Positions 1 through 20,499 of a stretch of DNA of 35,285 nt are shown one piece after another. The position numbers and the translations under genes were made by a program. The notes under the pieces are model-generated. The model saw only the letters and a program-made list of their open reading frames with translations, searched no databases and was not told the DNA's origin. The stretch spans positions 1-35,285 of the forward strand of contig JBHIDS010000002.1 of assembly GCA_046760205.1 (NCBI GenBank). The letters are read 5' to 3'. The stretch comes from Candidatus Methanofastidiosia archaeon. Its GTDB lineage: Archaea; Methanobacteriota_B; Thermococci; Methanofastidiosales; SZ-28-30. The stretch's first letter is position 1; every line of letters begins with the position of its first letter.

Positions 1-354
1 AATGACAATAATCCATGCTTTTTTTTTGATAAAGCTTTCTCTCTTTTTATACTTTCTAAATTCTTTTTCATTCATCCTTTTTATCGATCCTATCTTCAAG
101 TAGTAATTGAAACTTATGAGTATCAAAGCTATGATCAAAATTCCTATGAGATAATTTTTTGGAAAAAATTCTATGAATTCTTCTGGTATTAAAATAAAAG
201 ATAAGATCAAGGGTATTCCCAATCCAATCACCACAATTTCCAAACTGAAGTATCTCTTAAGTTTTTTCTTCAACATGAAAATAGTTGGAATTGAAAGTAA
301 CAATATCACCCATGCAAGAATTATCCTTGTAAGCCAAATCATTTCGTTCTCCAT
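1..354 (-). CDS. Integral membrane protein, N-terminal 118 codons only (gene runs off the window start)
   Basis: Absent from the ORF track because it has no stop inside the window. Hand translation of the minus strand from ATG 354..352 to base 1 is stop-free: MENEMIWLTRIILAWVILLLSIPTIFMLKKKLKRYFSLEIVVIGLGIPLILSFILIPEEFIEFFPKNYLIGILIIALILISFNYYLKIGSIKRMNEKEFRKYKKRESFIKKKAWIIVI. It has three hydrophobic helices, AAGGTG 5 nt upstream of the ATG, and lies on the same strand as the upstream genes. Preferred over the antisense track ORF 173..397. Confidence 0.45.
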   Translation of the reverse strand, partial: MENEMIWLTRIILAWVILLLSIPTIFMLKKKLKRYFSLEIVVIGLGIPLILSFILIPEEFIEFFPKNYLIGILIIALILISFNYYLKIGSIKRMNEKEFRKYKKRESFIKKKAWIIVI

Positions 355-548
355 TTTAGCACCTTATTTTTTTGAATTCGGTTTAGGATTATATTAACTT
401 TTTGGTTTAAAAATCCCACATATATCCCAAATCAATAGGTGAAACATGAAAAGAATCTTTATCATCGTTATTTTTCCTCCTCAACTTCGTTTTTTTCTCA
501 AATTGGGCTTTGTTTGAAAGTGATGTTGTAAAAATCAAAGATTTAGAG

Positions 549-1151
549 TTAGGATGAAAAGAGTCTCTTCTCTCTAACATCCTCAACGAGTTTAAGAATG
601 TCTCTCCTGAGATTTGGAACCAGATCAGAGATGGCATAGAATCCGATAACACCAATGAGAACTCCTCCAAGGTTGTAGGTGAGATCGTGGGCATACTTCC
701 AAGCCAATCCTTTCTCGAAAAAGAATATAACAAGAGTAAGCCTTAAAGTGTTTAGGAAGTATAAGAGGAGAGCGAGAATTATCAGAGATTTGAGTTTATC
801 TGAGAGTTTGGCTTCTGTTGCAAGAACCAATCCGAGAAAGAGTCCAAATATGGGAACTATGGTGCAGTTCACTGTTATCTCATAGGTTCCAATTGTGGAG
901 CTCTGAGTTTGGGCAGCTTTTCTTATGCTCTCTATGGCAGGATTTAAGATAATCCAAACCTTTTCATCCAAAACTGACACAGACTTGTTCTGACCAAGAA
1001 GGTTCAAAAGTCCTACCGCATGGATTGCAGTCTGTTTTCTGAACCAGAAGTAATTGGATATAAAATAGATGAAGAGAAAAACTCCAACTGTAATAGATAG
1101 AAAGACAAGACTTCTGTTGAGACCAAACTTCTTTTCTACTGCATCACTCAA
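549..1151 (-). CDS. Exosortase/archaeosortase-family-like polytopic membrane protein (stand-alone, Cys-containing paralog)
   Basis: Track ORF 549..1181. The likely start is TTG 1151 (AGAGGTGG, then 5 nt, then TTG), overlapping the upstream stop at 1144 by 8 nt. The protein is polytopic. In track numbering the motif order is LLNLLGQNKSVSV, then ITVNC(106)TIVPIF, then NTLR(147)LTL exactly 41 residues later, then AH(165)DL 18 residues after that. This Cys...Arg...His layout in consecutive TM helices matches what I know of the EpsH/ArtA family. The Cys codon TGC was verified at 866..864. Assignment by eye only. Confidence 0.6.
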   Translation of the reverse strand: MSDAVEKKFGLNRSLVFLSITVGVFLFIYFISNYFWFRKQTAIHAVGLLNLLGQNKSVSVLDEKVWIILNPAIESIRKAAQTQSSTIGTYEITVNCTIVPIFGLFLGLVLATEAKLSDKLKSLIILALLLYFLNTLRLTLVIFFFEKGLAWKYAHDLTYNLGGVLIGVIGFYAISDLVPNLRRDILKLVEDVREKRLFSS

Positions 1152-2607
1152 GTGAACCACCTCTGTGGAATCTCTCCTCAAGCTCCCTTTTAAAGTTTTT
1201 GAGAGAGAGATTCAACTCTTCCTCAAACTCTGGAATCTCTGGGGAGAGGAATTTTAAGAGGATGTAACTCTCTGCAATAAAAAATAAGTAATATGGAAGG
1301 TCGTGAGCCCAAAACATGGAAAATCCAAGGTTTGTTCCATAGAGAAGCAAAGACAGCCTTACGAGATTTGAGGAAAAAACGACGAAAAACACCTTGAAAA
1401 TAGCTTTGAGCCTCTTTGAAAAGGTTGTCTTAGATGCTATACACATCCCAAAGAAGAGAAAAAGAATTGGGAGGGCTGCAGAGTTTTTGGAGAGTAGGTA
1501 ATCATCGACAAGGGAAAAATCGCCTAAGAACTCCACCCTCACAGAGTATCCCAAAAAGTCTAAGAGCTTATAGAGGATGATGGTGGTGATTCTTCGAAAG
1601 ATGTAGTAATCTGAGATTTTATAGAGAAAGGTTGTAACTAGAAAGGTTTTTAGGAGAAAGTAAAGAATCTTGTTCTCATAGAGATGTCTCAAGATCGATT
1701 CAAGGGTATCCACCAAGACTACTTTCTCCTCTCTTTTCTTCATGTACTCCTCAAGTAGAACTGGAAGGAGAAGAAAGAAAAGAATCACCCAGAAAAAGGA
1801 GGGGATGAACTCCTTAATCTCAACTATGTCTTCCAACTCTGCAGGATCTGATGTATCCACAGTTATCAACTTTCTCTTTGCAAAGTCAGAGACCCAGATG
1901 AAGTTTTCCTGGAGAGCCACTCCAAGAGGGTATGCAGTTGGAGCCTGGAACCAATCCACCATCTCGCCATTTGTGGTATCAAAGCTATAGATTATTCCTC
2001 CAGAGAAGTCTGAAATTATTAAATACTCTCCATCCCAGTCCATTCCCTTAGGGTGCTCTCTCGGAGCCCTGAATCTCTTCTTCATCTCCCCAGTTTCTGT
2101 ATCTATTGTGTAGATTATGCCAGCAGGTTTTGCGTAGATGTCTGGAAATCCCTCTGTTCCATAGACATCTGAGACCCAGAGGTTCTCACCATCCCAGGCA
2201 AGCCCCCATGGAGTGGATAGAGGGGTTTTCAGCTCTAAGAGTACCTCACCCTTTAAAGAGAGCATGAAGAGCTTTCCTCCAATGAAGTCTGCATTCCAAA
2301 GATGCTCTCCATCCCAGGCAAGGCCTGCAGGCTTTACAGCAGGCGTTTTGAAGCTCTCAAGAACTTCAAACGTTTGGGGGTCCATTACCTTAATTAGTTT
2401 TTTCCTTGAGTCTGCAAGATATAGCTTTCCCTCAACAAACACCAATCCTTTATAGACGGTTGAGGGGTCTCTGAACTCTTGAACAGTTTCAAAGTAGTTT
2501 GAGACCTCTCTCTTTACAAGTTTTAATTTATAATCTCTGTAAAGGAGGATGGAAAAAGTGAAAAAAGCCAGAATGAACAAAATGATGAGCTTGTTTATCT
2601 TCTTCAA
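1144..2607 (-). CDS. Fusion protein: N-terminal TM anchor + five-bladed beta-propeller (glutamine cyclotransferase-like) + TM + C-terminal archaeosortase-like polytopic domain with Ser in the Cys position
   Basis: 487-aa ORF with a TTG start at 2607 preceded by GGTGAT plus 3 nt. Residues 5-22 are hydrophobic. Five repeats of the type G(L/M)(A/D)WDGE.LW..D...(I/L)....D cover residues ~55-250, and a DPQTFEVL segment is reminiscent of plant/bacterial glutaminyl cyclase. A TM helix spans residues 271-285. Residues ~300-455 align with the 549..1151 protein: LLDFLGYSVRVE, KNS(376)AALPIL, NLVR(417)LSL, AH(435)DL, with the identical 41 and 18 residue spacings. Confidence 0.7.
   Translation of the reverse strand: MKKINKLIILFILAFFTFSILLYRDYKLKLVKREVSNYFETVQEFRDPSTVYKGLVFVEGKLYLADSRKKLIKVMDPQTFEVLESFKTPAVKPAGLAWDGEHLWNADFIGGKLFMLSLKGEVLLELKTPLSTPWGLAWDGENLWVSDVYGTEGFPDIYAKPAGIIYTIDTETGEMKKRFRAPREHPKGMDWDGEYLIISDFSGGIIYSFDTTNGEMVDWFQAPTAYPLGVALQENFIWVSDFAKRKLITVDTSDPAELEDIVEIKEFIPSFFWVILFFLLLPVLLEEYMKKREEKVVLVDTLESILRHLYENKILYFLLKTFLVTTFLYKISDYYIFRRITTIILYKLLDFLGYSVRVEFLGDFSLVDDYLLSKNSAALPILFLFFGMCIASKTTFSKRLKAIFKVFFVVFSSNLVRLSLLLYGTNLGFSMFWAHDLPYYLFFIAESYILLKFLSPEIPEFEEELNLSLKNFKRELEERFHRGGSLE
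1874..2379. repeat. 506-bp tract 100% identical to 2970..3475 (direct repeat, offset 1096 bp), internal to the propeller-coding region
   Basis: Base-by-base comparison of the two stretches found no mismatch from ctctttgcaaagtcagagac... to ...cttcaaacgtttgggg. The encoded 168-aa segments and the antisense-frame ORFs are identical in the track. The flanks diverge immediately (t vs c at 1873/2969, g vs a at 2380/3476). Confidence 0.9.
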
Positions 2608-2616
2608 TCCATCACC

Positions 2617-2787
2617 CTAAAAAAGTAAGAGAACCAAAAGCCCCAGTAGAATCATCACTACTATTAAAATTATGAAGGGAAAAAAAATGGTCTCTAAAGT
2701 TGCTATGGTAATGGCTATGTAGTCCTTCCAGTCAGGTTTTATCTCGTCTTTTTTTTTCTCAAAATCATCAAATTCAAAGTCTCTCAT
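2617..2787 (-). CDS. Small membrane protein, 56 aa (sORF below the track cutoff); paralog of 11358..11495
   Basis: Hand translation: MRDFEFDDFEKKKDEIKPDWKDYIAITIATLETIFFPFIILIVVMILLGLLVLLLF, stop TAG at 2619..2617. ATG 2787 is preceded by GAGGTGA plus 3 nt and overlaps the last 14 nt of the upstream gene. The sORF exactly fills the gap before the next gene (start 2607). It has an acidic N-terminus plus one TM helix. A second copy with the same (W/F)KDY(I/V)A..IA.L(E/Q)T...PF..LI core sits in the same context elsewhere in the window. Confidence 0.55.
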   Translation of the reverse strand: MRDFEFDDFEKKKDEIKPDWKDYIAITIATLETIFFPFIILIVVMILLGLLVLLLF

Positions 2788-3703
2788 TTCTCACCTCACG
2801 TAGATTTCTTATTTTTTTGGGAAGCCTGCTCTTCATGTACTCCTCTACAAATATTGGTAAAAGAGCGAAGGCAAGAATCACCCAAAACCAACTTGGAACA
2901 AAGTTCTCCCTCTCACCAAATATGTCTCTGTACCTTGCAGGCTTTGAGAGATTGACTTTAAATATAACCCTCTTTGCAAAGTCAGAGACCCAGATGAAGT
3001 TTTCCTGGAGAGCCACTCCAAGAGGGTATGCAGTTGGAGCCTGGAACCAATCCACCATCTCGCCATTTGTGGTATCAAAGCTATAGATTATTCCTCCAGA
3101 GAAGTCTGAAATTATTAAATACTCTCCATCCCAGTCCATTCCCTTAGGGTGCTCTCTCGGAGCCCTGAATCTCTTCTTCATCTCCCCAGTTTCTGTATCT
3201 ATTGTGTAGATTATGCCAGCAGGTTTTGCGTAGATGTCTGGAAATCCCTCTGTTCCATAGACATCTGAGACCCAGAGGTTCTCACCATCCCAGGCAAGCC
3301 CCCATGGAGTGGATAGAGGGGTTTTCAGCTCTAAGAGTACCTCACCCTTTAAAGAGAGCATGAAGAGCTTTCCTCCAATGAAGTCTGCATTCCAAAGATG
3401 CTCTCCATCCCAGGCAAGGCCTGCAGGCTTTACAGCAGGCGTTTTGAAGCTCTCAAGAACTTCAAACGTTTGGGGAGAAATCTTGTATATGAGCTTTGTG
3501 TCAGAGTTTGCAAGCCAAAGATTTTCTCCATCAAAGCAAATCCCTTGCGTGATGTTTGAGGGGCTTTCAAACTTGTTTTCTGTAACGAAGTATCTTGAAA
3601 TAATAGTTTCTCTCCTTTTACTATCGTACACATCATACAAAAAAACAGTGAGAACAAAGATTCCAAAGATGAGCAACAAAATTCTCTTGTTTACCTTTCT
3701 CAA
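2774..3703 (-). CDS. Membrane-anchored five-bladed beta-propeller protein (glutamine cyclotransferase-like), paralog of the N-terminal half of 1144..2607
   Basis: Track ORF 2774..3793. I place the start at TTG 3703, for three reasons: GGTGAT plus 3 nt plus TTG is the same arrangement as the paralog start; it gives (M)RKVNKRILLLIFGIF, which aligns with MKKINKLIILFILAFF; and it avoids an 86-nt overlap with the upstream ATPase gene (stop 3708). Layout is N-terminal TM, propeller repeats, then a C-terminal TM (WFWVILAFALLPIFV) followed by a basic tail. Confidence 0.8.
   Translation of the reverse strand: MRKVNKRILLLIFGIFVLTVFLYDVYDSKRRETIISRYFVTENKFESPSNITQGICFDGENLWLANSDTKLIYKISPQTFEVLESFKTPAVKPAGLAWDGEHLWNADFIGGKLFMLSLKGEVLLELKTPLSTPWGLAWDGENLWVSDVYGTEGFPDIYAKPAGIIYTIDTETGEMKKRFRAPREHPKGMDWDGEYLIISDFSGGIIYSFDTTNGEMVDWFQAPTAYPLGVALQENFIWVSDFAKRVIFKVNLSKPARYRDIFGERENFVPSWFWVILAFALLPIFVEEYMKSRLPKKIRNLREVRNERL
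2970..3475. repeat. Second copy of the 506-bp identical tract (partner 1874..2379)
   Basis: See 1874..2379. Confidence 0.9.
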
Positions 3704-7624: not shown

Positions 7625-9457
7625 TTAGTTGTCTTTTTTCTTTCTCAAAACCAAACCAAGTCCAAAGAGTACTGCGATTATGCTGAAGGCTGGTGCCTCT
7701 GCTTTCTCTGTTCTCACCCAGTAGCTGTACCCAGCTTTTGCCATGGTTTCCCTAGCCTTTACTGGGTCGTATGGATAAGGTTGTAGGTTGTCGTTGTAAG
7801 CCCAGGAAGGCACTGCAATTGGGTTTGCAATTGGAACTGAGAGACCTCCTAAAAGCTCATCCACTATTTGTTGTCTTGGTATCATGTAGGAGCAAGCCTG
7901 TCTTACGTACTTGTTGGCAAGGTAGGGATTTCTCACGTTGTAGTGCATGTGCTGGTATCCAAAGTTCTCTGCAGTAACAGCGGTGATGTTGGGCTTTGCG
8001 TTGAGATCGTCAAAGAACTCGTTGAGACTGTACTGGGCATCGAGGATGTCAACCTCGTTGTTCTCGAGAGCCACTTGGGCAACTGAAGCCTCAGTTATTG
8101 GCTTGATGATCAAGTACTTCGCTCCAGCTTTCCCAGGAGTTGTGCCCCAGGTCGCAATTCCTCCCCAGTAGTCCTCGTTTCTCTCAAGCTTGACGAACTC
8201 GTCCTTCACCCATTCAACGAACTTGAAGGGTCCTGTTCCGATCACTTTTGTTGGGTCTCCAGTGCTGTGAGGTGCCTCTATCCAAGCTTGGGCTGAACCC
8301 TCACCTGTAAGTGGTAACTCTCCATAAACACTCTTTGGCAGAACTGCAACACTGATCTGTCCAAGCCAGTTGGCGTGGGGTTGCTTGACGTAAACTCTCA
8401 CAGTGTACTTGCCTACCTTCTCGTACTTCTCGATCATATCTGGTAACTGTCCAGTCTGGGGCAGCGCCAGATCATCTGAGAGCAGTGCATCGTAGGAGAA
8501 TATCAGATCGTCCGCAGTCATCTCAACTCCATTGTGGAACTTGATACCTTCTCTAAGCTTTATGTCAAAGTACTCCGGAAATTCAAGGGGTGTAGCAACA
8601 TCCTCAATCTCGAACTCCTTTGTAGGTCCTGGAGTTGCTGATTCGGCAAGAAACGGCACCAAGCTAAGATTCTCATCCCTTGTAAACAGACCCTCAAAGA
8701 CCTGTCCAATGGCTTGAATGGTGTAAAGAGAACCATACAGATAGACGTTGGTAGTCTCTATGTCGTCGTTTTGAGCATATACGATGGTATCTCCATCTGC
8801 AGGCACCCAGGGTCTTGCATCCCCAACGATGGACCAGTGGTCACCGTTAAAGCCGCCCAGGTTAGAATCATAGGCATAAACCTGCTTTAGAGAGTAAATC
8901 ACAGAGTAGGGTTGTTCATCATAGATTATCTCCTGCCACTCATCCAAAAACTGCTTTCTCTTTGCTTGGTCAAGCTCTAATCTTGCCTTCACCAAAAGCT
9001 CGTCAGCCTTGGGGTTAATCCACCAGGTGATGGAATATCCTTCTGGAATGAGGTACTTCGAGGAGAAAATGTACTCTGGGTCTGGATCAATACCCACACC
9101 CCAGCCAAAGAATCCGATGTCAAATCCACCCTCATCGTAGGTCTTTCCCTCCACGTTGTCAAACTCCCTGCCAATCAAATCAGAGAAGTCCATCATAACA
9201 AGTTCGGTCTCTATTCCAATCTTCTTGAGCTCTTCAGCCATGATTGCTGCATACTGCTCTCTCACCTTGTTACCCAACGGGGCTATCAAAGTGATCTTGA
9301 AGAATTTGGGATATGTAGAGTAGTCCTCTGTGAAAGGCACTTGGGTAAATTCTGGAGGTTCTTGTGCAACAACAGATACATTTCTTCCAAAGAAAGCCAG
9401 AGTCAACATTGAAACAAATAGCAAACTCACCAGTACTCCAAATTTCCTAGATTTCAT
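7625..9457 (-). CDS. oppA: ABC transporter substrate-binding protein, family 5 (Opp/Dpp type), with a C-terminal PGF/PEF-CTERM-like membrane anchor
   Basis: 610 aa with an N-terminal signal/anchor (FGVLVSLLFVSMLTLAFF). It has SBP_bac_5-like sequence throughout (e.g. GTGPFKFVEWVKDEFVKLERNEDYWG). The C-terminus is EAPAFSIIAVLFGLGLVLRKKKDN, i.e. motif, TM helix, then basic cluster. GGAGGT lies 7 nt before ATG 9457. Confidence 0.9.
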   Translation of the reverse strand: MKSRKFGVLVSLLFVSMLTLAFFGRNVSVVAQEPPEFTQVPFTEDYSTYPKFFKITLIAPLGNKVREQYAAIMAEELKKIGIETELVMMDFSDLIGREFDNVEGKTYDEGGFDIGFFGWGVGIDPDPEYIFSSKYLIPEGYSITWWINPKADELLVKARLELDQAKRKQFLDEWQEIIYDEQPYSVIYSLKQVYAYDSNLGGFNGDHWSIVGDARPWVPADGDTIVYAQNDDIETTNVYLYGSLYTIQAIGQVFEGLFTRDENLSLVPFLAESATPGPTKEFEIEDVATPLEFPEYFDIKLREGIKFHNGVEMTADDLIFSYDALLSDDLALPQTGQLPDMIEKYEKVGKYTVRVYVKQPHANWLGQISVAVLPKSVYGELPLTGEGSAQAWIEAPHSTGDPTKVIGTGPFKFVEWVKDEFVKLERNEDYWGGIATWGTTPGKAGAKYLIIKPITEASVAQVALENNEVDILDAQYSLNEFFDDLNAKPNITAVTAENFGYQHMHYNVRNPYLANKYVRQACSYMIPRQQIVDELLGGLSVPIANPIAVPSWAYNDNLQPYPYDPVKARETMAKAGYSYWVRTEKAEAPAFSIIAVLFGLGLVLRKKKDN

Positions 9458-9632: not shown

Positions 9633-10016
9633 ATGGAACTCGGTCCATTGGAAAACAAGATAATGGAGATAGTTTGGAGAAAGAGAAAGGTCGATGCGAG
9701 AGAGATTTACAAGGAACTCAACAGGGAAAAAAAATTAGCCTATACCACCATAAACACCACTCTGACAAGACTTTGCGAGAAGAATCTTTTAAAGAGGAAA
9801 GCTATCAAGGGGAGAGGAGGTATGAGGTACATCTACACCCCTACTAAAACTAAGAGAAAGTTTCAGAACTTTGTCATAAGAAAGACCTTGGACGATCTTC
9901 TCTCAAGATTTGGAGAGGTTACCATTCAATACTTCTCTGAGAATCTAAATTTGAGTGAGGAGGAGATCGAGATGCTCAAGAGGAGAATGGAGGAATTGAA
10001 TGAGAGAGGAGATTGA
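9633..10016 (+). CDS. BlaI/MecI/CopY-family winged-helix transcriptional repressor
   Basis: LENKIMEIVWRKRKVDAREIYKELNREKKLAYTTINTTLTRLCEKNLLKRK is the typical Penicillinase_R-type N-terminal wHTH. Size is 127 aa. It overlaps, and is followed by, an M56-type peptidase gene. A TTTATAAA box lies ~25 nt upstream of the ATG, suggesting a leaderless or short-leader mRNA. Confidence 0.8.
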   Translation: MELGPLENKIMEIVWRKRKVDAREIYKELNREKKLAYTTINTTLTRLCEKNLLKRKAIKGRGGMRYIYTPTKTKRKFQNFVIRKTLDDLLSRFGEVTIQYFSENLNLSEEEIEMLKRRMEELNERGD

Positions 10017-11361
10017 GAATTTAGCCTTTGCCTTGGCTCTCGTTTTGCTCATCTATGTTTTAAACGAGATTGTAATCAAGCTATTTCGAATTTCAAATCC
10101 ATCCACCAAGTTTAAAATCTACATGATCTCTCTTCTAACCTGCTTTTCCCTCTTCATTTTAGTTCCTCTCAAGGTCAGAGAGCTCAACATCATCCTTGAA
10201 AATTCTGAGAGTGTTCTCTTTGACAGCATCGACTCTATCTACACTATTAAGGCAAGCTCAGTTTTTTTTGCCACCCGTTACTCTGACTTTGCGATACTCT
10301 CTGCGGTTTCTGCAATCCTCACTTTAAGCTTTTTCTCAATAGTTCTTCTCGCCTCCAAAAGACTAATTAAGTATAAGATCGGTGCAAGAGAACTTGAAAA
10401 CCCAAAGGTCTTAAAGCTTATAGATGAATTGGAAAGGGAGATTGGGGTTGAGGTTTCAGAAGTTGTGAGCTTTGAGGGAGAACCTAACGCCTTTGTTTTT
10501 TCCTATCCTCCAATTCTTGCCTTGAGTAGGGAGCTCTTAGAAAAGTTGGACAAAGGAGAGCTCAAGTTGGTTTTGAGACACGAGCTCTATCACATCAGAA
10601 ACAGAGACACCTTACTTAAACCTCTTTTACTCTCAATCTCCATCTTCTTCTTCTACAACCCTTTATCCTACTTTCTCTACAAGAGACTTATGGAGTACAG
10701 AGAGTACGTTGCAGACAAATCTGCAATATTCTCTGAGATGGAAAAGAGAAAGTTCCTCTCTCTACTCTTGAAGTTTCACACTCTGGAGAGAGAACACGGA
10801 GTTCTCTCCTTTAAAGGCTCAAAGAATTTGAGAAACAGAATAAATTCCCTCCTTTCAACTCAGAAAGAAAGAAAAGCTCCAATTCTCATAAGTATCCTCC
10901 TCACCCTTTCTCTAATCTTTTCTGGAAACTATTACCTAGGAGCCAACTTTGAGTACTCGGAATCCTATGTGAGAAACCTCAAAGATCCACAGAGCCTGAA
11001 GGGTGTAGAGAGAGTCTTTTTGAACTTCTCAGATCAAGAGATAATAGAGATGTATGAAAAAAAGATTAGAAATAGGGAGAAAATAGAGTTCTACCTCAAC
11101 AAAACAGATGCCGAACTCATTAAAATTCTTTTAAGAGAGAAAAACAAATCGAAGGAGAGTGTGAAAATAAACTTGAACTCTCTAAATCTCAACAAGCGAA
11201 GATTCAGAGCGCTTCTTAACATAGAGGAGAATTTGAGAAAGGAATTCAAGCTTGTGATAGACAACACTGGAGAAGTTCTCACTGTATATATCACCATAAA
11301 CGACCCTCAAGAACCTTTGAAATTTGAAATCCCAAAAAATCCCAAGTACCAGATCATCTAG
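10000..11361 (+). CDS. BlaR1/MecR1-like M56-family membrane metalloprotease/signal transducer (no penicillin-binding sensor domain evident)
   Basis: Several N-terminal TM helices, an HEXXH zinc motif in LVLRHELYHIRNRD, and further TM helices. The ~150-aa Lys/Glu-rich C-terminal domain has no SxxK motif. GGAGGA lies 5 nt before ATG 10000, and the gene overlaps the blaI-like gene by 17 nt. Confidence 0.7.
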   Translation: MREEIENLAFALALVLLIYVLNEIVIKLFRISNPSTKFKIYMISLLTCFSLFILVPLKVRELNIILENSESVLFDSIDSIYTIKASSVFFATRYSDFAILSAVSAILTLSFFSIVLLASKRLIKYKIGARELENPKVLKLIDELEREIGVEVSEVVSFEGEPNAFVFSYPPILALSRELLEKLDKGELKLVLRHELYHIRNRDTLLKPLLLSISIFFFYNPLSYFLYKRLMEYREYVADKSAIFSEMEKRKFLSLLLKFHTLEREHGVLSFKGSKNLRNRINSLLSTQKERKAPILISILLTLSLIFSGNYYLGANFEYSESYVRNLKDPQSLKGVERVFLNFSDQEIIEMYEKKIRNREKIEFYLNKTDAELIKILLREKNKSKESVKINLNSLNLNKRRFRALLNIEENLRKEFKLVIDNTGEVLTVYITINDPQEPLKFEIPKNPKYQII

Positions 11362-11495
11362 GGTATGAGGTTTATGAGAAGCACTATTAAAAAGAGAACG
11401 AGAATTAAGAGAAGAAATGGTAGAAGAGTAGTTTGAAGCAAGGCTATGACGAATGCCACATAGTCCTTGAACTCCAACTCATCTTTATCTGACAT
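11358..11495 (-). CDS. Small membrane protein, 45 aa (sORF below the track cutoff); paralog of 2617..2787
   Basis: Hand translation: MSDKDELEFKDYVAFVIALLQTTLLPFLLLILVLFLIVLLINLIP, stop TAG at 11360..11358. ATG 11495 overlaps the last 11 nt of the upstream 695-aa gene. The core EFKDYVAFVIALLQTTLLPFLLLI aligns with DWKDYIAITIATLETIFFPFIILI of the other sORF. Confidence 0.5.
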   Translation of the reverse strand: MSDKDELEFKDYVAFVIALLQTTLLPFLLLILVLFLIVLLINLIP

Positions 11496-13572
11496 AATGG
11501 ACCCTATCCTCAATCTCCTTTAAGACTTTTCCCTTAATTGATCTTAGGTAAGCAAACTCCACCATCTCTCTCTCCTCCATGAGAGTCCTTGTAAAACCTA
11601 TATAGAGTAGAAGAAAAACCAAGATCAAAATACTCAGGTAAAGCATCTCTCCAAAAGTCTCACTCTTCAAGAGAAAATCTGAGAAAATCCATGTGAAATA
11701 GAAGGTGTATGGTACCGTAAACGCAAGAATTCCAATGATGAGAGAGATGATGAAAGCCCTCAACTTTATCCCTCTTCTTATTCCCTCCTCCAAACTCTGA
11801 GAAACGCTTGAAAGTCTCAACCAAAAAATGTAGATAAAGAGGGCTGGAAAAACCAGAAGATGCATGTAGTAGGAAAGCTCCAAGGTAAAGTAAAAAACCA
11901 GAAAGAACAGAAACACCATGATGAAGGTATCCTCTACTTCCTTTTGAATCATTTTCCTTTTGTGATAGCTTAAAAGAATGGAAAAGCACATGAGAAAAAG
12001 AATTGGGATTTTGAGGGAGTGATTGAAAAGGGCATAGGTTAGCTCAAGATAATCTATTTCTTCTATACCCTCCTTTGAAACCCTCAAGTGATAAGTGTTC
12101 AGGGGGTTTAGAATTCTTTCACCCTCAGTCTCTACCCAGACGTGTCCTATCCCAAAGACAAGCTCTGTCTTGTACCCAAGATTTTCGAGTAAAGAGGCTG
12201 CGAGAAAAGCCTGACCATCACAGTCCTCCCCCATTCTTCTTAAAGTTTCAAGAGGGGTGGTGTAGAACTCGACCCTTTCTGGTTCTGAGGAAACCCTACT
12301 CCTCACAAACTCCTCCACAAATCTAACTCTCTCATTCTCATCTATAAATTCAAATCCCATCATATAACCTCCTATGAGTTCTACAGGAACACTCTCTTGT
12401 AAAACTAACCTTGAAGGGTTGTACACTCTCTCGTAGTTCAAGCCTTGAGGTTGGGTTGATAGATAGAAGGTGAGAAGCAAAATGAGAAAGAATCCTGCCT
12501 TGATATAGAAATCGATTTCTCGTAGCTTAAAGGTCCCAATTGCAAAGAGGCTGAAAATGAGCAAAACCTTGATTAAAAAGATGGAGATACCATATCTGTT
12601 TTTGAGGTTTGGAGGGGAAGGATTTTCAAAATAAGATTTTCCCTCTTTTAAGTATTTCTCTGTCTTAAAGCTATCCTCCTTGAAGTAGGAACTCCAAGCT
12701 CTCTCGAGCATTATGGTGGCATCGAGACTTGAGGGTTGAAGCTCAAGTTCCTTCTGAAATTCCATGAGCTTGAAGTAAAGGGAAGAACTCTCAAGCTTTG
12801 GGGATGCAAGATTTGAAATTAAATCTGATATGAATTTCTTGTTGTTGGAGTATCTCATATCCAAGCTGTCTCCAATGACCACCACTCGTCCCATCCCATA
12901 CTCCCTCATAGCCATGAGAGCCAAATCTCCTCTCTTCACGATGATTCCTGGATAGCCCTCCTCGTGAAGTTGCCTTGAGAATGACTCCCTACTTGCCTTC
13001 AGAGTCTTCCATTCACCTCTAAATTCAAGGGAAGAGGAATGGTTCAGATAGAGCTCTCTCTCTAAACTGAAATCAAAGGTTTGATCTAAAACTATGTAGC
13101 TCGAGGGAGACCTTCCTCTATAAGTAGGCACGTAACTCTTAAAATCAAAAACCACGTCTCGTTTCACAGAAATCTTGAAACTCTCCAAAAGCTCGTTAAC
13201 GTATGAAGTCCAATTACTCATCACAACGAGAGTCCCTCCTTCCTCCACATAACTCAAAATGTCTGAAATCTCACTTTCGAGAAAGGAGGATGTAGGTTCA
13301 AAAATCAAGAGAACCTGGTAGTTTGAAAGGAATTTGCGATGAAGTGGGAAGAAGGGTGGAGTGTCTGAGTAGAAATCAAAGATATCTTGAAAGAGCTTCA
13401 CATCTGAGGATGGATTTTGATGCTTGTCATCCAGCAGAACCCTAATTTTACCAGAGGGAGATTCTATGTTGGCTTTCTTGATAGATGGGGTGGTGGAATA
13501 GCCATCAAAATCGATGGATGAGAAGGCGAGGGCAAGCATTATTAAGAGATAGATTAGATGGCTTTTATTCAT
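11485..13572 (-). CDS. Large membrane protein with an extracytoplasmic N-terminal alpha/beta domain, a transglutaminase-like Cys-protease core and a polytopic C-terminus
   Basis: 695 aa with a signal/anchor MNKSHLIYLLIMLALAFSS. The N-terminal ~300 aa include YQVLLIFEPTSSF...YVEEGGTLVVMSN, which is DUF4350-like to my eye. Two TM helices follow. The transglutaminase core is GEDCDGQAFLAASLLENLGYKTELVFGIGHVWVE (Cys and His in the canonical spacing). About 6 more TM helices complete the protein. Confidence 0.7.
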   Translation of the reverse strand: MNKSHLIYLLIMLALAFSSIDFDGYSTTPSIKKANIESPSGKIRVLLDDKHQNPSSDVKLFQDIFDFYSDTPPFFPLHRKFLSNYQVLLIFEPTSSFLESEISDILSYVEEGGTLVVMSNWTSYVNELLESFKISVKRDVVFDFKSYVPTYRGRSPSSYIVLDQTFDFSLERELYLNHSSSLEFRGEWKTLKASRESFSRQLHEEGYPGIIVKRGDLALMAMREYGMGRVVVIGDSLDMRYSNNKKFISDLISNLASPKLESSSLYFKLMEFQKELELQPSSLDATIMLERAWSSYFKEDSFKTEKYLKEGKSYFENPSPPNLKNRYGISIFLIKVLLIFSLFAIGTFKLREIDFYIKAGFFLILLLTFYLSTQPQGLNYERVYNPSRLVLQESVPVELIGGYMMGFEFIDENERVRFVEEFVRSRVSSEPERVEFYTTPLETLRRMGEDCDGQAFLAASLLENLGYKTELVFGIGHVWVETEGERILNPLNTYHLRVSKEGIEEIDYLELTYALFNHSLKIPILFLMCFSILLSYHKRKMIQKEVEDTFIMVFLFFLVFYFTLELSYYMHLLVFPALFIYIFWLRLSSVSQSLEEGIRRGIKLRAFIISLIIGILAFTVPYTFYFTWIFSDFLLKSETFGEMLYLSILILVFLLLYIGFTRTLMEEREMVEFAYLRSIKGKVLKEIEDRVHYVR

Positions 13573-14537: not shown

Positions 14538-15005
14538 TCAAAACAACCTTCTTTGGTGAAATGAGAAAAAACCTCTGTAAGACTTTTTTTGAAGCTCGGA
14601 GTAGAGTTTTTTGGTTTGCTCCCAGGAAAGCCTCTCATACTCTGAAGGCATTCCCTCTTTAAGTCTCAACTTTGTCCTAAAGAACTCTTCCTTGCTCTCT
14701 GAAGCTATGGTGTAAACTTCCTTTCCGAGATTCACCCCATACTCCATCTCCTTCAAAACTCCATACGTATACTTTTCAAAGATGACGAGCCCACAAACTA
14801 TCCTTGATGATGAAATGAGATTCTCAAAGAAACCTTTTCCCTTGAAACCGTAGTCTGCTGGATTTATTATCTTTGAATCCCGAAACTTTGATCTTAGAAA
14901 TTCAAGGCACTCCCTCTCTGTTTTGGTGTGAAAGGTGAGTGTGGGATGTGAGAAGTAGAGTTTTTCACCCAAATCCTCTCTTCTCCCAAAAAGCCTTCTA
15001 AGCAA
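14538..15005 (-). CDS. Hypothetical protein; tentative nucleoside 2-deoxyribosyltransferase-like (DUF4406-like) fold
   Basis: Track ORF 14538..15014 (GTG start). I prefer TTG 15005 (AGAGGTGGA, 4 nt, TTG), which overlaps the upstream stop by 8 nt. KLYFSHP...INPADYG...RIVCGLVIFEKYTYGVLKEMEYGVNLGKEVYTI loosely resembles the IYxxGP...NP...CDxxxxL..S.G...E...A..lGk.V pattern. The function call is weak. Confidence 0.55.
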   Translation of the reverse strand: MLRRLFGRREDLGEKLYFSHPTLTFHTKTERECLEFLRSKFRDSKIINPADYGFKGKGFFENLISSSRIVCGLVIFEKYTYGVLKEMEYGVNLGKEVYTIASESKEEFFRTKLRLKEGMPSEYERLSWEQTKKLYSELQKKSYRGFFSFHQRRLF

Positions 15006-16557
15006 GTCTTCCACCTCTTAAAGTATATATAAACCTCAAAAAGACTCCACAAAAAGCACCTAAGGGGCTTGTCTTTAAGCCAAGAGAGATTCCAGAGATT
15101 CCAAATCTTAGAATCATAGCTATGATGAAACTCTCACTCTCTGAAACCCATAAAAAGCATCCCACCAAAACTCCTGTAAAAAGGGAAGCTATTAATCCCA
15201 AACCAAACCCCACGAAGAGACCAATGAAACCGCCCTCACTTTTCCAGGCATTCCTTCCTGCAAAGCCTCCTGAGAAAAGACCTACCAAAAGAAAAAAAGA
15301 ACTCTCAAAAGGCGCCTCTCCCAAATATCTTCCCAAAATAGCACCAAATATTCCTCCAAGAAGAAAGGAGAAGAACTCTCCACCCTTTAAGAAATCAAGA
15401 CTCAATTTCTTTCCTCTGTAAGTAAAGATGAAAATCTCTAAAATTCCAACACCAAAAACCAAAGCCCATGCATTTCTCGAACCTATAAGAAAAACCGAAT
15501 TGCTGAAAAAAAGGTTTACAGAATCTTTTGAGAAGGAAAATATGTACTCTCCACCAAGAGAACTCTCCAAGAATCTCCTCTCTTCAATCCCACTATATCT
15601 CCAAACTGGAATTTTCCTTTTGCCATAGTACAAACTAATACCCTCTCCATCAGAAACTATGAGATAAGAACCATATGGTGGAAAATAGATGAGAGCTTCA
15701 TCTTTAACGTCATGTGAAATCAGTAATTCTCCGTTATTGGAGAAGATTTTTATCTCCTCTCCCACAACCATCACCTCTCTTCCCTTGGCTCTTAAACTCA
15801 GACTTTTTATCTCCTCTTCAATATTGTGACTCCAGAGAGTCTTGCCCTCATGTAATAGATGAATCTCTCCATTTGATGTGGCAACTGCCATATAATCTCC
15901 AGACCTTGAAATTGAGGCATCGATTATCTTGAATAGAAACTTCCTCTCCCAAATCAACTCTCCCTTCGAGGAGGAAAAAAATGAGAGCTTTTTATCTGAA
16001 AATATTATAACATACTTTCCATTTTGAGACAATTTTGCCTTTGCACCTTTTAGGGAGATTGACCACATGGGACTTTCCCTGTTCTTGTCGAAGAGTGAAA
16101 CTTTCTCTTTAGAAGTAACCAGAATTCTCACCAAAGCTGTGGTTCCTCCACCAGAGAATATGTCAGATACTCTTGAATCCTCTCTGAGATTTATTTTTAA
16201 AAGAGGCATGGGTTTTCCTGCATTTCCTTGAAAGATACAGTAGAGATTTCCCTTCTCGTCAGTGGCAGCAAGGTATCTTCCATCTAGAGATATTTTGAGA
16301 GAGGTTATCCTTGCATCTGCTTGGTACTCCCAAAAAGGTTTGGAATTGAAGGAAAGGTGGTAAAAGATCTTTCCACTTGAAGTCCCAAAAACCAAAGAGC
16401 CTCCATCCCCAGAGACATGAGTAGACGTTATCTCATCTTCTGTGTTAAGTATCCAGTTGGGTTTCTTTTCCCTGACAGTACCTGTGAAAACATAGATGGA
16501 TAGAATGATAAAAATGAGGGCAAATGAAATAGCCTTAAAGTTTATCGTCATCACCAT
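14998..16557 (-). CDS. Membrane-anchored PQQ/WD40-like beta-propeller protein with a C-terminal glycine-zipper polytopic domain
   Basis: Track ORF 14998..16650. The start is moved to ATG 16557 (MVMTINFKAISFALIFIILSIYVF), overlapping the oppF2 stop by 7 nt. About 330 aa carry repeats of the type S.DG.Y.A..T..G.I.L......LW. Then come 5-6 Gly-rich TM helices (GGIFGAILGRYLG, GLFSGGFAGRNAW, GLFVGFGLGLIASLFTGVLVG). Confidence 0.75.
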   Translation of the reverse strand: MVMTINFKAISFALIFIILSIYVFTGTVREKKPNWILNTEDEITSTHVSGDGGSLVFGTSSGKIFYHLSFNSKPFWEYQADARITSLKISLDGRYLAATDEKGNLYCIFQGNAGKPMPLLKINLREDSRVSDIFSGGGTTALVRILVTSKEKVSLFDKNRESPMWSISLKGAKAKLSQNGKYVIIFSDKKLSFFSSSKGELIWERKFLFKIIDASISRSGDYMAVATSNGEIHLLHEGKTLWSHNIEEEIKSLSLRAKGREVMVVGEEIKIFSNNGELLISHDVKDEALIYFPPYGSYLIVSDGEGISLYYGKRKIPVWRYSGIEERRFLESSLGGEYIFSFSKDSVNLFFSNSVFLIGSRNAWALVFGVGILEIFIFTYRGKKLSLDFLKGGEFFSFLLGGIFGAILGRYLGEAPFESSFFLLVGLFSGGFAGRNAWKSEGGFIGLFVGFGLGLIASLFTGVLVGCFLWVSESESFIIAMILRFGISGISLGLKTSPLGAFCGVFLRFIYTLRGGRLA

Positions 16558-17522
16558 AAACCTCGAAAGTGACAAGCCACAAAGTGTCTGTTTACCTCCT
16601 CTAAAAGCTTGGGTTCTTCTTTGGTGCAAACTTTCTGTGCAAATGGACATCTTGGATGAAACCTACAGCCTGGAGGCGGATTTGAGGGAGATGGAACATC
16701 TCCTTTTAGAATTATCTCTTCCTGCTGAAAGTCTGGATCAGGATTCGGTATGGCAGAGAGAAGAGCTTTGGTGTAGGGATGGAGATGGTTTGAGAAGAGC
16801 TCATCCACACCACACATCTCCACTATCTTTCCAACGTACATCACTGCAACGATATCTGAGATGTGCTTTATAATCGAGAGATTGTGAGAGATGAAGAGAT
16901 AGGTTAGATTCATGTTTCTCTGCAAATCTTGGAGCATATTTAGAACCTGAGCCTGCACTGAAACATCTAAAGCTGAAGTGGGCTCGTCCAAAACGATGAA
17001 CTTGGGATTTAGAGCCAAAGCCCTTGCCACACATATCCTCTGTCTTTGACCTCCAGAGAACTCATGAGGGTACCTATTGAGGTGCTCTGGTTTCAACCCC
17101 ACCGTATCCAAAAGCTCTAAAACCCTTTCCTTTAACTCTTTCCCGTTGTAAAGATTCTGGATAACGAAAGGCTCCCCCACGATGTTCTTGATGGTCATTC
17201 TTGGATTTAAAGATGAGAAGGGATCCTGAAAAACCATCTGCATGTTTCTCCTCATAATCCTCAGCGTTTCGTTATCGAGATTTCCTAAGTCTTTGCCCTC
17301 AAAATAGATCTTCCCTTCTGTGGGTTCCACAAGCCTTAGGATTGTTCTCCCAACAGTGGTCTTTCCACACCCACTCTCTCCCACCATGCCAAGGGTCTCT
17401 CCCTTCTCGATATAGAAAGAAATGTCGTCCACAGCATGCACATACCCAATGACCCTTGAGAAGACTCCCCCTTTTATTGGAAAGTACTTCTTCAGCCTCT
17501 CAACTTCAATAAGATGAGTCAC
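16551..17522 (-). CDS. oppF: Oligopeptide/dipeptide ABC transporter ATP-binding protein (OppF/DppF type), second system
   Basis: [34 protein letters not shown] and C-terminal [11 protein letters not shown]. Track start is 17558. I prefer GTG 17522 for three reasons: GGAGGTGG lies 5 nt upstream, it forms a GTGA overlap with the upstream stop, and the N-terminus (M)[13 protein letters not shown] aligns with [14 protein letters not shown] of the paralog. Confidence 0.92.
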   Translation of the reverse strand: MTHLIEVERLKKYFPIKGGVFSRVIGYVHAVDDISFYIEKGETLGMVGESGCGKTTVGRTILRLVEPTEGKIYFEGKDLGNLDNETLRIMRRNMQMVFQDPFSSLNPRMTIKNIVGEPFVIQNLYNGKELKERVLELLDTVGLKPEHLNRYPHEFSGGQRQRICVARALALNPKFIVLDEPTSALDVSVQAQVLNMLQDLQRNMNLTYLFISHNLSIIKHISDIVAVMYVGKIVEMCGVDELFSNHLHPYTKALLSAIPNPDPDFQQEEIILKGDVPSPSNPPPGCRFHPRCPFAQKVCTKEEPKLLEEVNRHFVACHFRGLW

Positions 17523-18508
17523 CTTGCCACCTCCTCCACCTTCTTGTAGAGATAGCAAGCTACACTGTGCTCAGATTTTACGTTGAAGGCTGGTGGTTTT
17601 TCCTTATCACATATATCCATTCTAAAGTCGCATCGAGGATGAAATCTGCAACCAGAAGGAGGATGAATCAGATTTGGAACTCTTCCCCTGATTATCTCAA
17701 GTCTCTCTCTCTTCTCCGAAAGCTTTGGAATAGCATTTATAAGTCCTTTGGTGTAGGGGTGCATTGGATCCTTGAAGATACTTCTCACGTCTGCAAACTC
17801 TACTATTACTCCCGCATACATCACAGCCACCCTGTCACAAATCTTGGCTATCACTCCCAAGTCATGAGTTATCAGGAGGAGAGAGGCATCTATTTCTCCC
17901 ATAATCCCTTTTATCAACTTTAAGATTTGGGCTTGGATTGTGACATCCAAAGCTGTGGTGGGCTCGTCTGCAATGAGTAAATCTGGGGAGCAAGAGATTT
18001 CCATGGCAATCATCGCCCTCTGCCTCATCCCCCCACTGAGTTCATGAGGATATTGTTTGAGCACTTTCTCTGGGTCAGGCATTCCCACTAGTTTTAACAT
18101 CTCCAAAGCTCTCTTTTTTGCTTCATCCTTTCCTACCTTCTGGTGAAGCATTATTATCTCCCTCATCTGGGATTCTATGGTAAAGACAGGATTAAGGGAT
18201 GTCATAGGTTCTTGAAAGATCATGGCAATTTCATTTCCCCTTATATCTCTCATCTCGTCCTCTGTTAACTCTAAGAGATTTTTACCCTCAAATAATATCT
18301 CTCCCCCGACTATTTTTCCTGGAGGGGATTGAATGAGTCTCATTATGGATAAGGCTGTAACAGACTTTCCACAACCAGTCTCTCCCACAAGCCCCACCGC
18401 CTCTCCCTTTTTGATATCTAAATTAATTCCATCAAGTGCTCTTACCACCCCCTCGTAGGTATAGAAGTAAGTACGAAGATTTCTTATCTCAAGTATTACC
18501 TCCTCCAT
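17519..18508 (-). CDS. oppD: Oligopeptide/dipeptide ABC transporter ATP-binding protein (OppD/DppD type), second system
   Basis: [33 protein letters not shown] and C-terminal [15 protein letters not shown] lies 8 nt before ATG 18508. Confidence 0.93.
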
Positions 18509-18512
18509 GAAA

Positions 18513-19409
18513 TCATCTCCTGAGTCTTGGGTCTAGGATGTCTCTCAAACCATCTCCAAAGAGATTGAAACCCAAAACGGTAATGAGAATTGCAAGTCCT
18601 GGAAAGGTCACCTGCCACCATGCAGTTACCAACCACTCTCTTCCATCTGCAATCATCCTACCCCACTCTGGTGTCCCTGGGGGAGCTCCAAAACCTATAA
18701 AACTCAGACCTGCAGCTGCTAAAATTATCCCTCCCATGTCCATGGTGGCTTGCACTGTTATGGGAGCAAGAGTGTTCGGCAGTACATGTCTGAATATGAT
18801 TCTCCTGTTGGAAGCTCCAAGAGAACGCGCGGCCTCCACATACTGATTCTCTCTCACAGAGAGAGCTTGACCTCGAATGAGTCTTGCATAACCTGCCCAT
18901 CCAACGAATGAGATAGCAAGAATAACCGTTTCAAGGCTCCTCTCACCAATAGCTGCAGCCACTGCCATTGCAAGGATCAAAAAGGGTATTGCAAAGAAAA
19001 CATCCACCACCCTCATTATGAACTCATCGATCTTTCCCCCCATATAACCTGCAATGACTCCAAGGGCAGAGCCCACACTCACGGATATGGCTATCACTAT
19101 CGCCCCAATCCTCAGAGAAATCCTTGAGCCATAAACAACCCTTGAGTATACGTCCATGCCACTGTCATCGGTTCCAAAGAAGTGCTCTTTAGATGGAGGT
19201 ATATTAATCTCTCTCAATACAACCTTCTCTGGATCATGGGTGGCAAGGTAGGGGGCAAACATAGCCACCAACAAAACCAAAGCAATTATTGCAAGCCCCA
19301 GCACGGTGAGGGGACTGTTTCTTATCAAGAATAAAGTGTACTTGTACTCCTTTATCTGAGCGTCGTGCTCTGCTCTCCATTCTGAGTAAAAGCTCATCAT
19401 ATCACCCAT
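18513..19409 (-). CDS. oppC: Opp/Dpp ABC transporter permease (OppC/DppC type), second system
   Basis: FGTDDSGMDVYSRVVYGSRIS, an EAA-like loop NQYVEAARSLGASNRRIIFRHVLPN and the C-terminal LDPRLRR. Track start is 19469. ATG 19409 (MGDMMSFYSEW) overlaps the oppB2 stop by 8 nt, and ATG 19400 or 19397 are also possible. Confidence 0.9.
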   Translation of the reverse strand: MGDMMSFYSEWRAEHDAQIKEYKYTLFLIRNSPLTVLGLAIIALVLLVAMFAPYLATHDPEKVVLREINIPPSKEHFFGTDDSGMDVYSRVVYGSRISLRIGAIVIAISVSVGSALGVIAGYMGGKIDEFIMRVVDVFFAIPFLILAMAVAAAIGERSLETVILAISFVGWAGYARLIRGQALSVRENQYVEAARSLGASNRRIIFRHVLPNTLAPITVQATMDMGGIILAAAGLSFIGFGAPPGTPEWGRMIADGREWLVTAWWQVTFPGLAILITVLGFNLFGDGLRDILDPRLRR

Positions 19410-20430
19410 ACCTAATCCTTGGATCCAAAAATGCATAAATGATGTCCACGATGAGGTTGGCAGTGACAAATATCACTGCAATAATCACTACGAACCCCAT
19501 GATGGTGGGAAAGTCTAAGGTAGTTAGGGCATTCACAACGTACCTTCCCATCCCAGGCCAGTAGAAAACAGTCTCTGTGAGAACAGCTCCACCCAGGAGT
19601 CCTGCAAAGGATAATCCTATGACTGTGGTGGTGGGAATTAGGGCATTTCTCAAAGCGTGCTTGTATATCACAACCCTCTCTGAAAGTCCTCCAGCCCTTG
19701 CTGTTCTTATGTAGTCTTGTCCCAAAACCTCAAGCATTGAGGATCTGGTCATTCTGGTAATTATGGCAGTTGACGCATACGAGAGGGCGATGGCAGGCAT
19801 TATGAGATGTTTCAAAGTGTCCACAAAAATAGGCCAGTTACCTGCAATCAGGCTATCAACGAGATACAATTTGGTTATCTTTTTTAGAGGATACTTCATG
19901 ATTACAAAATCGTTAACCCTTCCTCCTGGATCTGGAAGCCAACCGAGCTTGAAGTAAAAGGTTAGTTGGAGAAGAAGTCCAAGCCAGAAGATTGGAATGG
20001 AAACACCCAAAAGCGCAAATATTCTGGTGAAGTGATCCATGGGCTTGTCCTTCTTGACAGCAGAAATAACTCCTGTGGGAATCCCAATCACTATGGCAAG
20101 CAGCATAGAAAATATGGTTAACTCCATGGTGGCTGGAAAGTAATCTTTCAACTCTTTCAAAACAGGTCTGTGAGTAACTGGAGAGTATCCCAAATCTCCC
20201 TTCAAGATTCCCTTCAAATAAATTAGGTATTGTACATATAGGGGATCGTTTAGATGATACGCTTCCCTTATGTTTTCTATGGCAGTCTCACTGGCTTTGG
20301 GTCCTCCAGCCCAGGCTGCTGCTGGATCTGCAGGAATTACGTGGGATAAAAAGAAAGTTATAAGGGTAACTCCAAACATCACTGGAATTAGAAGCAAAAG
20401 CCTTCTCAATATGTAGTCACGCATCTTCAT
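19402..20430 (-). CDS. oppB: Opp/Dpp ABC transporter permease (OppB/DppB type), second system
   Basis: MKMRDYILRRLLLLIPVMFGVTLITF, then PADP; an EAA loop DYIRTARAGGLSERVVIYKHALRN; and the C-terminal LDPRIRYG. GAGGT lies 6 nt before ATG 20430. Confidence 0.92.
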   Translation of the reverse strand: MKMRDYILRRLLLLIPVMFGVTLITFFLSHVIPADPAAAWAGGPKASETAIENIREAYHLNDPLYVQYLIYLKGILKGDLGYSPVTHRPVLKELKDYFPATMELTIFSMLLAIVIGIPTGVISAVKKDKPMDHFTRIFALLGVSIPIFWLGLLLQLTFYFKLGWLPDPGGRVNDFVIMKYPLKKITKLYLVDSLIAGNWPIFVDTLKHLIMPAIALSYASTAIITRMTRSSMLEVLGQDYIRTARAGGLSERVVIYKHALRNALIPTTTVIGLSFAGLLGGAVLTETVFYWPGMGRYVVNALTTLDFPTIMGFVVIIAVIFVTANLIVDIIYAFLDPRIRYG

Positions 20431-20499
20431 TTGGAAACCTCATCCACACCAAGCAAAAATTCAATATAAGCTTTTTGGTAAAATAAAAAAGAAAAAAGT
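20431..20499 (-). terminator. Putative intra-operon oligo-T terminator/attenuator after the second binding-protein gene
   Basis: The transcribed strand right after the TAA stop reads acTTTTTTcTTTTTTaTTTTacc. The position is equivalent to 7548..7624 in the paralogous operon. Confidence 0.3.

Follow-up and report, generated by a model that had tools for sequence, protein, structure and literature searches.

What becomes of a membrane-embedded sorting enzyme when its catalytic cysteine is exchanged for serine, and a cysteine-bearing relative is encoded directly behind it? This question is raised by a 35,285-nt stretch of DNA, hereafter the window, from a Candidatus Methanofastidiosia archaeon (GenBank assembly GCA_046760205.1, contig JBHIDS010000002.1, positions 1 to 35,285 of the forward strand). 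One of its open reading frames (ORFs), ORF B, fuses an extracytoplasmic beta-propeller to an exosortase/archaeosortase-like domain that carries Ser in place of the catalytic Cys, and the next gene, ORF A, encodes a stand-alone mini-archaeosortase with the Cys in place. A third gene upstream, ORF C, is a paralog of the propeller part. We consider it the most likely reading, with a probability of about 0.5, that the sortase-like domain of B is a folded, catalytically disabled paralog and that catalysis would be supplied by A.

The first-pass annotation of this DNA had paired Ser376 of B with Cys106 of A, with an Arg at +41 and a His at +59 in both proteins, and this reading of the codons is correct. 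When aligned with hmmalign to a family profile built without A and B, Ser376 falls in the catalytic-Cys column, as had been proposed. The same register is obtained by BLASTP between A and B (E=7e-15, 25% identity over 194 residues), where ITVNC is paired with LSKNS, and by a MAFFT alignment of 23 sequences. Among 37 aligned family members, namely the 36 non-spurious matches of an exhaustive search and the fusion protein P0038 (P and L numbers are our identifiers for proteins and loci), this column holds Cys in 36 and Ser in B only; the Asn, Arg and His columns are conserved in 36/37, 37/37 and 36/36, respectively. Cys389 of B, in FFGMCIAS, had been named as another possible nucleophile; it is out, being placed 13 residues deeper in the same helix and in a variable hydrophobic column. 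The flank of the Ser in B (YLLSKNS) is nearly identical to that of the Cys in the relative P0005 (YLFSKNC), and at the 24 most conserved columns B agrees with the family in 14, with mostly conservative mismatches, and A in 19. Since Asn414, Arg417 and the Ala-His-Asp motif are kept together with this flank and these columns, the B domain is not a decayed remnant.

Could Ser376 itself be the nucleophile? Ser376, His435 and Arg417 might form an acyl-enzyme and act as a transpeptidase or hydrolase, perhaps one that is oxidation-resistant or leans toward hydrolysis. We consider such an active Ser variant unlikely: it would agree with the retention of all other conserved positions, with B being as good a family member as A and with its confident AlphaFold2 (AF2) model, and Cys/Ser nucleophile exchange has arisen naturally in other protease clans, but a Cys-to-Ser change in sortase-type thiol transpeptidases usually costs orders of magnitude of activity. 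Moreover, Ser occurs in 0/36 other detectable relatives, and the lineage that has it carries an extra Cys paralog next door, suggesting compensation. Archaeosortases conserve residues that resemble the sortase triad, and mutagenesis of archaeosortase A (ArtA) confirmed that its conserved predicted active-site residues are important and needed for processing (PMC6098224). Because these residues are required in ArtA, the loss of the thiol would most likely abolish or greatly weaken the normal reaction in B.

The family assignment was examined over the whole domain. When 1.84 billion representative proteins were searched exhaustively with HMMER and an A+B profile, 37 matched at E<=0.001; the 1225-aa repeat protein P0017 among them was spurious and was dropped. 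On TIGR04178, the exosortase/archaeosortase signature, A scores 32.6 bits, above the curated cut-off of 23, and B scores 18.2 bits (E=0.0022) in an alignment that begins past the Cys position. Because B alone is just under this cut-off, a clade profile independent of TIGR04178 was built from 21 relatives with A and B left out (177 positions); it matches the B domain at 121.9 bits over 165 of the 177 positions with high posterior probabilities, and A at 130.0 bits. TIGR04178 is in turn matched at E<=0.01 by 23/23 aligned clade members, the B domain included, and the heimdallarchaeosortase model NF045528 by 21 of the 23. Neither A (46.2-46.4 bits) nor B (9.9 bits) is a heimdallarchaeosortase by score, the cut-off of NF045528 being 130; TIGR04125 (archaeosortase A) gives A 32 bits against a cut-off of 75 and has no match in B. 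Precomputed PF09721 matches are found in the relatives P0003 and P0006. The archaeosortase-family assignment made at first sight is thereby supported, and on full-length homology the B domain is assigned to the exosortase/archaeosortase superfamily, with its Arg and His and without its nucleophilic Cys. A polytopic topology with active-site positions at the extracytoplasmic face, as predicted for B, is likewise a trait of the superfamily. A sequence profile of the sortase-like domain found no relative in the PDB, nor did a Foldseek search that started from its confident model (best E=0.89), and word-indexed protein searches with the C-terminal domain of B and with A returned only A itself.

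The substitution can be compared with five orthologous fusions, all of which have Cys. A profile search with full-length fusions recovered P0028 (JGI; annotated at source as 'exosortase/archaeosortase family protein') and P0038 (HXS41_11430, annotated as 'hypothetical protein', from the Theionarchaea metagenome-assembled genome (MAG) GCA_019008925.1), both 486 aa long and with the same domain order. A genome scan yielded two more loci, both Cys, L012 (Theionarchaea SZ_20-22.3) and L011 (a Methanomicrobia-labelled MAG); the fusions in L011 and in P0004/L008, the fifth ortholog, are truncated. Like B, these Theionarchaea-type proteins consist of an N-terminal transmembrane (TM) helix, a propeller, an IPxFW-TM segment and a mini-sortase domain with the same Arg, His and Asn; unlike B they keep the Cys, and their loci of 10-17 kb contain no counterpart of C or A. 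Two scans of metagenome contigs, with the B domain and with the fusion alignment, found no relative.

Gene order is conserved in L002-L006 and L012, where a BlaI/BlaR1-like pair, a substrate-binding protein (SBP), two permeases, two ATPases and the fusion gene follow one another. Identity between the window and the fusion loci is 64-65% for the ATPases, 51-57% for the permeases, 46% for the SBP and 27% for the fusion protein, and thus the window organism is a moderately distant relative of Theionarchaea and the fusion gene is fast-evolving. Scanned in six frames with the clade profile, each of these six 10-17 kb loci has exactly one sortase-like gene and the window has two. The start of A overlaps the stop of B by 8 nt and is preceded by a Shine-Dalgarno-like GAGGTGG. 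The only lineage whose fused domain lost the Cys is also the only one with a translationally coupled Cys paralog. Compensation by A is suggested by this coincidence of the sole Ser with an extra adjacent Cys gene. The nearest stand-alone relatives of A (P0003 in L007 and P0006 in L013) lie beside genes for a PRC-barrel protein, PcrB of archaeal lipid synthesis and a GT4 glycosyltransferase, not beside propellers, which makes the location of A beside B uncommon for a stand-alone protein. As judged from these comparisons, the propeller-archaeosortase fusion is ancestral and syntenic in Theionarchaea-type MAGs, the Ser and the added stand-alone Cys paralog being derived in the window. The first-pass annotation had suggested that a tethered inactive paralog with a propeller, set beside the active enzyme, would be a new architecture for the family. 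For the fusion this does not hold, as it already exists in five Cys-bearing orthologs and is the sole sortase-like gene where the flanks are known; what does hold is that a fused Ser copy lies directly upstream of the Cys-bearing A, an arrangement seen in the lineage of the window only.

The nucleophile codon is TGT in 4/4 fusion loci read (L002, L006, L011 and L012), and thus TCT in B is one transversion from its relatives. A change this small, confined to one lineage, might simply be a recent neutral or slightly deleterious loss in a domain made redundant by A or by another archaeosortase, that is, a first step of decay with no retained role; the arrangement would then be a passing state of evolution and not a designed pair. 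We regard this as unlikely. B is somewhat more divergent than A at the conserved columns (14/24 against 19/24), and C, the propeller paralog at the ancestral position, is already without a sortase domain; however, the frame of B is intact over 487 codons with every other motif kept, its domain scores 121.9 bits with a confident predicted fold, and a gene conversion between B and C, described below, marks B as a member of an actively maintained pair.

From N- to C-terminus, B comprises a signal-anchor TM helix, a five-bladed propeller, a second TM helix and the mini exosortase/archaeosortase domain. Hydropathy and charge distribution place the anchor at residues 4-22, followed by an external domain of about 244 residues, and put the EEYMKKR that follows TM helix 2 on the cytoplasmic side. 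The span 1243..1707 singled out in the first-pass annotation corresponds to residues 301-455 and is the polytopic domain. An AF2 model of the membrane domain from the 23-sequence alignment is all-helical, with a mean pLDDT of 93.2 and a pTM of 0.79; it supersedes a full-length run on a shallow alignment, in which the membrane domain had a pLDDT of 32-70. The hydropathy layout puts Ser376 at the outer end of a helix, Arg417 about six residues inward from the outer end of the helix after it, and His435 in the outer loop that follows the Arg417 helix. From hydropathy together with the positive-inside pattern, propeller and active-site positions are predicted to share one face, the outer one. The possibility that B is two genes was ruled out, because no stop interrupts the frame and five other loci carry the same fusion.

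The propeller of B is best matched among PDB structures by 2iwa and 3mbr (Foldseek, TMt 0.70-0.75, rmsd 2.7-3.4 A), and its profile spans all of 3mbr (E=1.2e-9). At the sequence level, generic NHL/Vgb-lyase/YVTN-like repeats are seen: Pfam SGL, Tachylectin and Glu_cyclase_2 matches are all below cut-off, and NHL reaches 24 bits against a cut-off of 20, yet no single stretch is significant alone. Glu_cyclase_2 (PF05096) gives 11.1 bits for B and 14.1 bits for C, short of its gathering score of 22.3. The likeness to glutaminyl cyclase is one of fold only. A separate observation concerns the SBP of the operon, whose predicted signal-peptide cleavage leaves an N-terminal Gln (VVA|QEPP), as it does in both Theionarchaea SBPs (L002, 2164..4080 and 9984..11822; AIA|QEQQ and VHS|QGG). 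The N-terminal Gln together with a glutaminyl-cyclase-like propeller in one operon could point to pyroglutamate maturation, or could be a coincidence.

In the explanation that we prefer, B is a surface protein of bitopic-plus-polytopic build: the N-terminal anchor would hold the five-bladed propeller outside the cell and the second TM helix would bring the chain back to the cytoplasm, followed by a mini-archaeosortase domain of four to five helices whose active-site positions would face the propeller side at the outer membrane face. The Cys-bearing fusion of the relatives is probably a dedicated enzyme that cleaves and lipid-anchors the C-terminally TM-anchored surface proteins of the operon. 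In the lineage of the window, one G-to-C change (TGT to TCT) would have swapped the nucleophile for Ser and left Asn, Arg, His and the rest intact. B would then no longer be an efficient thiol transpeptidase, the translationally coupled A downstream would take over catalysis, and B would be kept as a non-catalytic or weakly catalytic module that presents the propeller at the membrane, may have retained the binding of sorting signals and might serve as a scaffold or receptor.

Several points weigh against this explanation. Because Ser occurs in a single lineage, the allele is not datable and selection on it is not measurable. The intact Asn, Arg and His-Asp and the Cys-like flank are equally consistent with a working Ser enzyme and with a mutation of very recent date. 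Any activity in the clade of B and A is a prediction from sequence, and A, which is only 27% identical to the B domain, could act on another class of substrates instead of standing in for B. The predicted substrates, finally, rest on a sub-threshold Heimdall-CTERM match and on the general architecture of a TM helix plus basic tail. The features on which the argument depends, and those around them, are collected in Table 1.

Table 1. Positions of genes, domains and active-site codons in the window.
Feature	Position	Strand	Remarks
Opp/Dpp-type SBP	7625..9457	-	first operon gene; operon runs down to C, B and A
Two permeases, then two ATPases	between SBP and ORF C	-	second ATPase stop at 3708
ORF C, propeller paralog without sortase domain	2774..3703 (listed ATG 3793)	-	likely TTG start
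Single-TM ORF, 56 aa	2617..2787	-	between C and B; absent from ORF list
506-bp block, 100% identical copies	1874..2379 and 2970..3475	.	in B and C propellers
ORF B (P0002), 487 aa	1144..2607	-	TTG start at 2607, GGGTGAT upstream
B extracytoplasmic beta-propeller (predicted), residues ~36-262	1822..2502	-	AF2 pLDDT >90 in full-length run
B TM helix 2, residues 267-285, FIPSFFWVILFFLLLPVLL, then EEYMKKR	1753..1809	-	hydropathy
B mini exosortase/archaeosortase-like domain, residues ~305-470	1198..1695	-	clade profile 121.9 bits
B Ser376, TCT, catalytic-Cys column	1480..1482	-	hmmalign to profile without A and B
B Asn414, kept	1366..1368	-	hmmalign
B Arg417, AGG, +41, invariant family Arg	1357..1359	-	hmmalign
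B His435, CAC, +59, invariant family His, AHD motif	1303..1305	-	hmmalign
ORF A (P0001), stand-alone mini-archaeosortase, 200 aa	549..1151	-	TTG 1151; frame open from 1181
A Cys106, TGC (866..864)	864..866	-	210-aa numbering; Cys96 if start is TTG 1151
A Arg (R147)	741..743	-	210-aa numbering
A His (H165)	687..689	-	210-aa numbering
BlaI/Penicillinase_R-like repressor and BlaR1/peptidase-M56 sensor pair	9633..11361	+	divergent from Opp operon

According to the ORF listing and domain annotation, the first 9.5 kb of the window are a single minus-strand gene string. The slot between the last ATPase and the small TM ORF, which is the place of the fusion gene in the relatives, is held in the window by C, with B and A beyond it. 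With the listed ATG start, the 5' end of C would share 86 nt with the upstream ATPase gene; the likely TTG start, five bases past the ATPase stop and with AGGTGAT upstream, gives a protein of 309 aa whose N-terminus (MRKVNKRILLL) parallels that of B (MKKINKLIIL). The small TM ORF (MRDFEFDDFEKKKDEIKPDWKDYIAITIATLETIFFPF...) is homologous to ORFs of 49-67 aa that follow the fusion gene in L002, L006, L008 and L011, and is a conserved small membrane partner. A paralogous small TM ORF is located at about 11364..11486 (-), after a 695-aa gene at 11485..13572.

B and C share the 506-bp block of Table 1, and the regions that flank it are just 37% and 49% identical at the protein level; this identity amid diverged flanks indicates recent gene conversion between diverged tandem paralogs. 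A perfect internal repeat in a metagenome-type contig also raises the suspicion of an artefact, be it an error at the Ser codon, a chimeric join via the repeat or, with B under the TIGR04178 cut-off, a wrong family, but we give very little credence to any of these. The Logan assembly of SRR29324583 (L001) equals positions 1..1903 of the window with one difference, a synonymous GTT/GTC at 957, and carries the identical TCT codon and propeller-TM-sortase junction; the Ser allele is therefore present in two assemblies. L001 ends 30 nt into the repeat; with two tandem copies, the assembly graph can be traversed in a single way only if each segment is to be used once. A chimeric join was rejected, since neither the junction nor the Ser codon falls within the repeat, both are on a single unitig, and the second assembly agrees. 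As to the family, the clade profile and the TIGR04178 matches in 23/23 members speak for it.

Candidate substrates are found within the same operon. The C-terminus of the SBP, APAFSIIAVLFGLGLVLRKKKDN, matches Heimdall-CTERM (NF045529) at E=0.0077 and 16.6 bits, below the cut-off of 24 bits, and in the orthologous SBPs of Theionarchaea the C-terminus likewise consists of a linker and a TM helix followed by KKKD or KRRN. C ends in FVPSWFWVILAFALLPIFV, followed by EEYMKSR and a basic tail; this motif-TM-basic tail arrangement matched no curated sorting-signal model. On these features, the SBP and C are putative targets of A and, in the relatives, of the Cys-bearing fusion.

The segment around TM helix 2 of B also looks like a tripartite sorting signal, here at an internal position, and the motif-TM-charged arrangement is kept in B, C, all orthologous fusions and P0043. 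The latter, a 384-aa protein (L009, 2825..3979), has a propeller, a VPSWFF-TM...LP motif and two or three different C-terminal helices, an extension with no match to the clade profile. It too adjoins an Opp-type ABC operon, which suggests a wider link between this propeller family and peptide transporters.

If [VI]P[SF][FW]-TM-EEYM-KKR were an internal sorting signal, the fusion would be an enzyme behind its own substrate: the Cys orthologs would cut and lipid-anchor their propeller, while in the window B would be permanently tethered or a substrate of A, and C would be a free substrate. We hold this to be improbable. The conservation of the segment and the end of C shortly past it, with a basic tail, would suit the idea, and ArtA cleaves a PGF tripartite signal that lies within the chain, ahead of a long C-terminal part, in a naturally occurring fusion of a substrate to NifU (PMC6098224); the segment of B, however, matches no curated sorting-signal model, known signals have a plain basic cluster where it has a conserved acidic EEYM/DELM after the TM helix, and the helix is needed for the topology in any case. 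A related, split-role reading is quite unlikely as well: a family that normally acts in cis behind its own sorting signal, freeing and lipid-anchoring its own propeller, would in the window be divided into the free substrate C, a tethered Ser form B that does not cleave itself and is possibly a receptor or scaffold, and the catalytic A.

Upstream of the operon, the divergent BlaI/BlaR1-like pair suggests that peptide uptake and surface maturation are controlled as one cassette in response to a signal. A similar pair beside the Opp operon is also kept in the Theionarchaea loci. Elsewhere in the window, at 14998..16650 and 16551..22155 (both -), there is another pairing of a transporter with a surface propeller: a second Opp-type operon, in which the SBP starts with a lipobox-like LSGC region, precedes the gene of a PQQ/BamB-like propeller protein that ends in several hydrophobic helices. 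No tRNA or Rfam features were found within the window.

Among known systems, the disabled-paralog explanation that we favor for B can be compared with inactive membrane-protease paralogs such as the iRhoms among the rhomboids, which keep the fold, have lost the nucleophile, carry an extra luminal or extracellular domain and act alongside active relatives. The iRhoms are of an unrelated fold and family, and the analogy covers a possible mode of action only. We know of no natural Ser variant of ArtA. Like B and A, the ArtA of Haloferax volcanii (PGF-CTERM) is polytopic, belongs to the same superfamily and has Arg at +41 (C173/R214 in the aligned homolog P0015), and it cuts at tripartite signals near the C-terminus of its substrates and allows them to be lipid-anchored (PMC6098224); unlike B, it has a longer model (271 positions) and no propeller fusion.

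Heimdallarchaeosortase, about 200 aa long, is the best-scoring named subfamily for A, and the SBP tail in the window is Heimdall-CTERM-like, but the scores of A and B are far under 130 bits, and the window organism is near Theionarchaea (Methanobacteriota) and not an Asgard archaeon. ArtE (TIGR04124), ArtH (NF041736), XrtX and XrtY share with A a short domain of 150-200 aa and match A and many clade members weakly; these matches are far under the equivalog and exception cut-offs, and the model names mention no propeller fusion. The plant and bacterial (type I) glutaminyl cyclases (2iwa, 3mbr and 3nol) resemble B in their five-bladed propeller, but the Pfam score of B is below cut-off.

Exosortases and archaeosortases are widespread and have seen little experimental work, and no PDB structure is detectable for them by sequence or fold. 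ArtA is the only member with an experimental study in the review literature (PMC6098224). The enzyme family and, in public MAGs, the propeller fusion are known; the Ser substitution beside a Cys paralog is unique to the window. Pseudo-enzymes are common in many families, and the Ser case is one of a single lineage. The propeller fusion is conserved where a peptide-uptake operon ends, which points to a factor dedicated to maturing the surface proteins encoded there, and the compact locus joins the enzyme with its candidate substrates. A Ser variant beside its Cys paralog is in effect a natural experiment on the requirement for the nucleophile. If the substitution is a recent loss only, it would be a curiosity; if B is functional, whether through a Ser nucleophile or as a partner without catalysis, the family would gain a mechanism beyond those known, and if the split-role reading is true, B would be the first regulatory pseudo-sortase in the exosortase superfamily.

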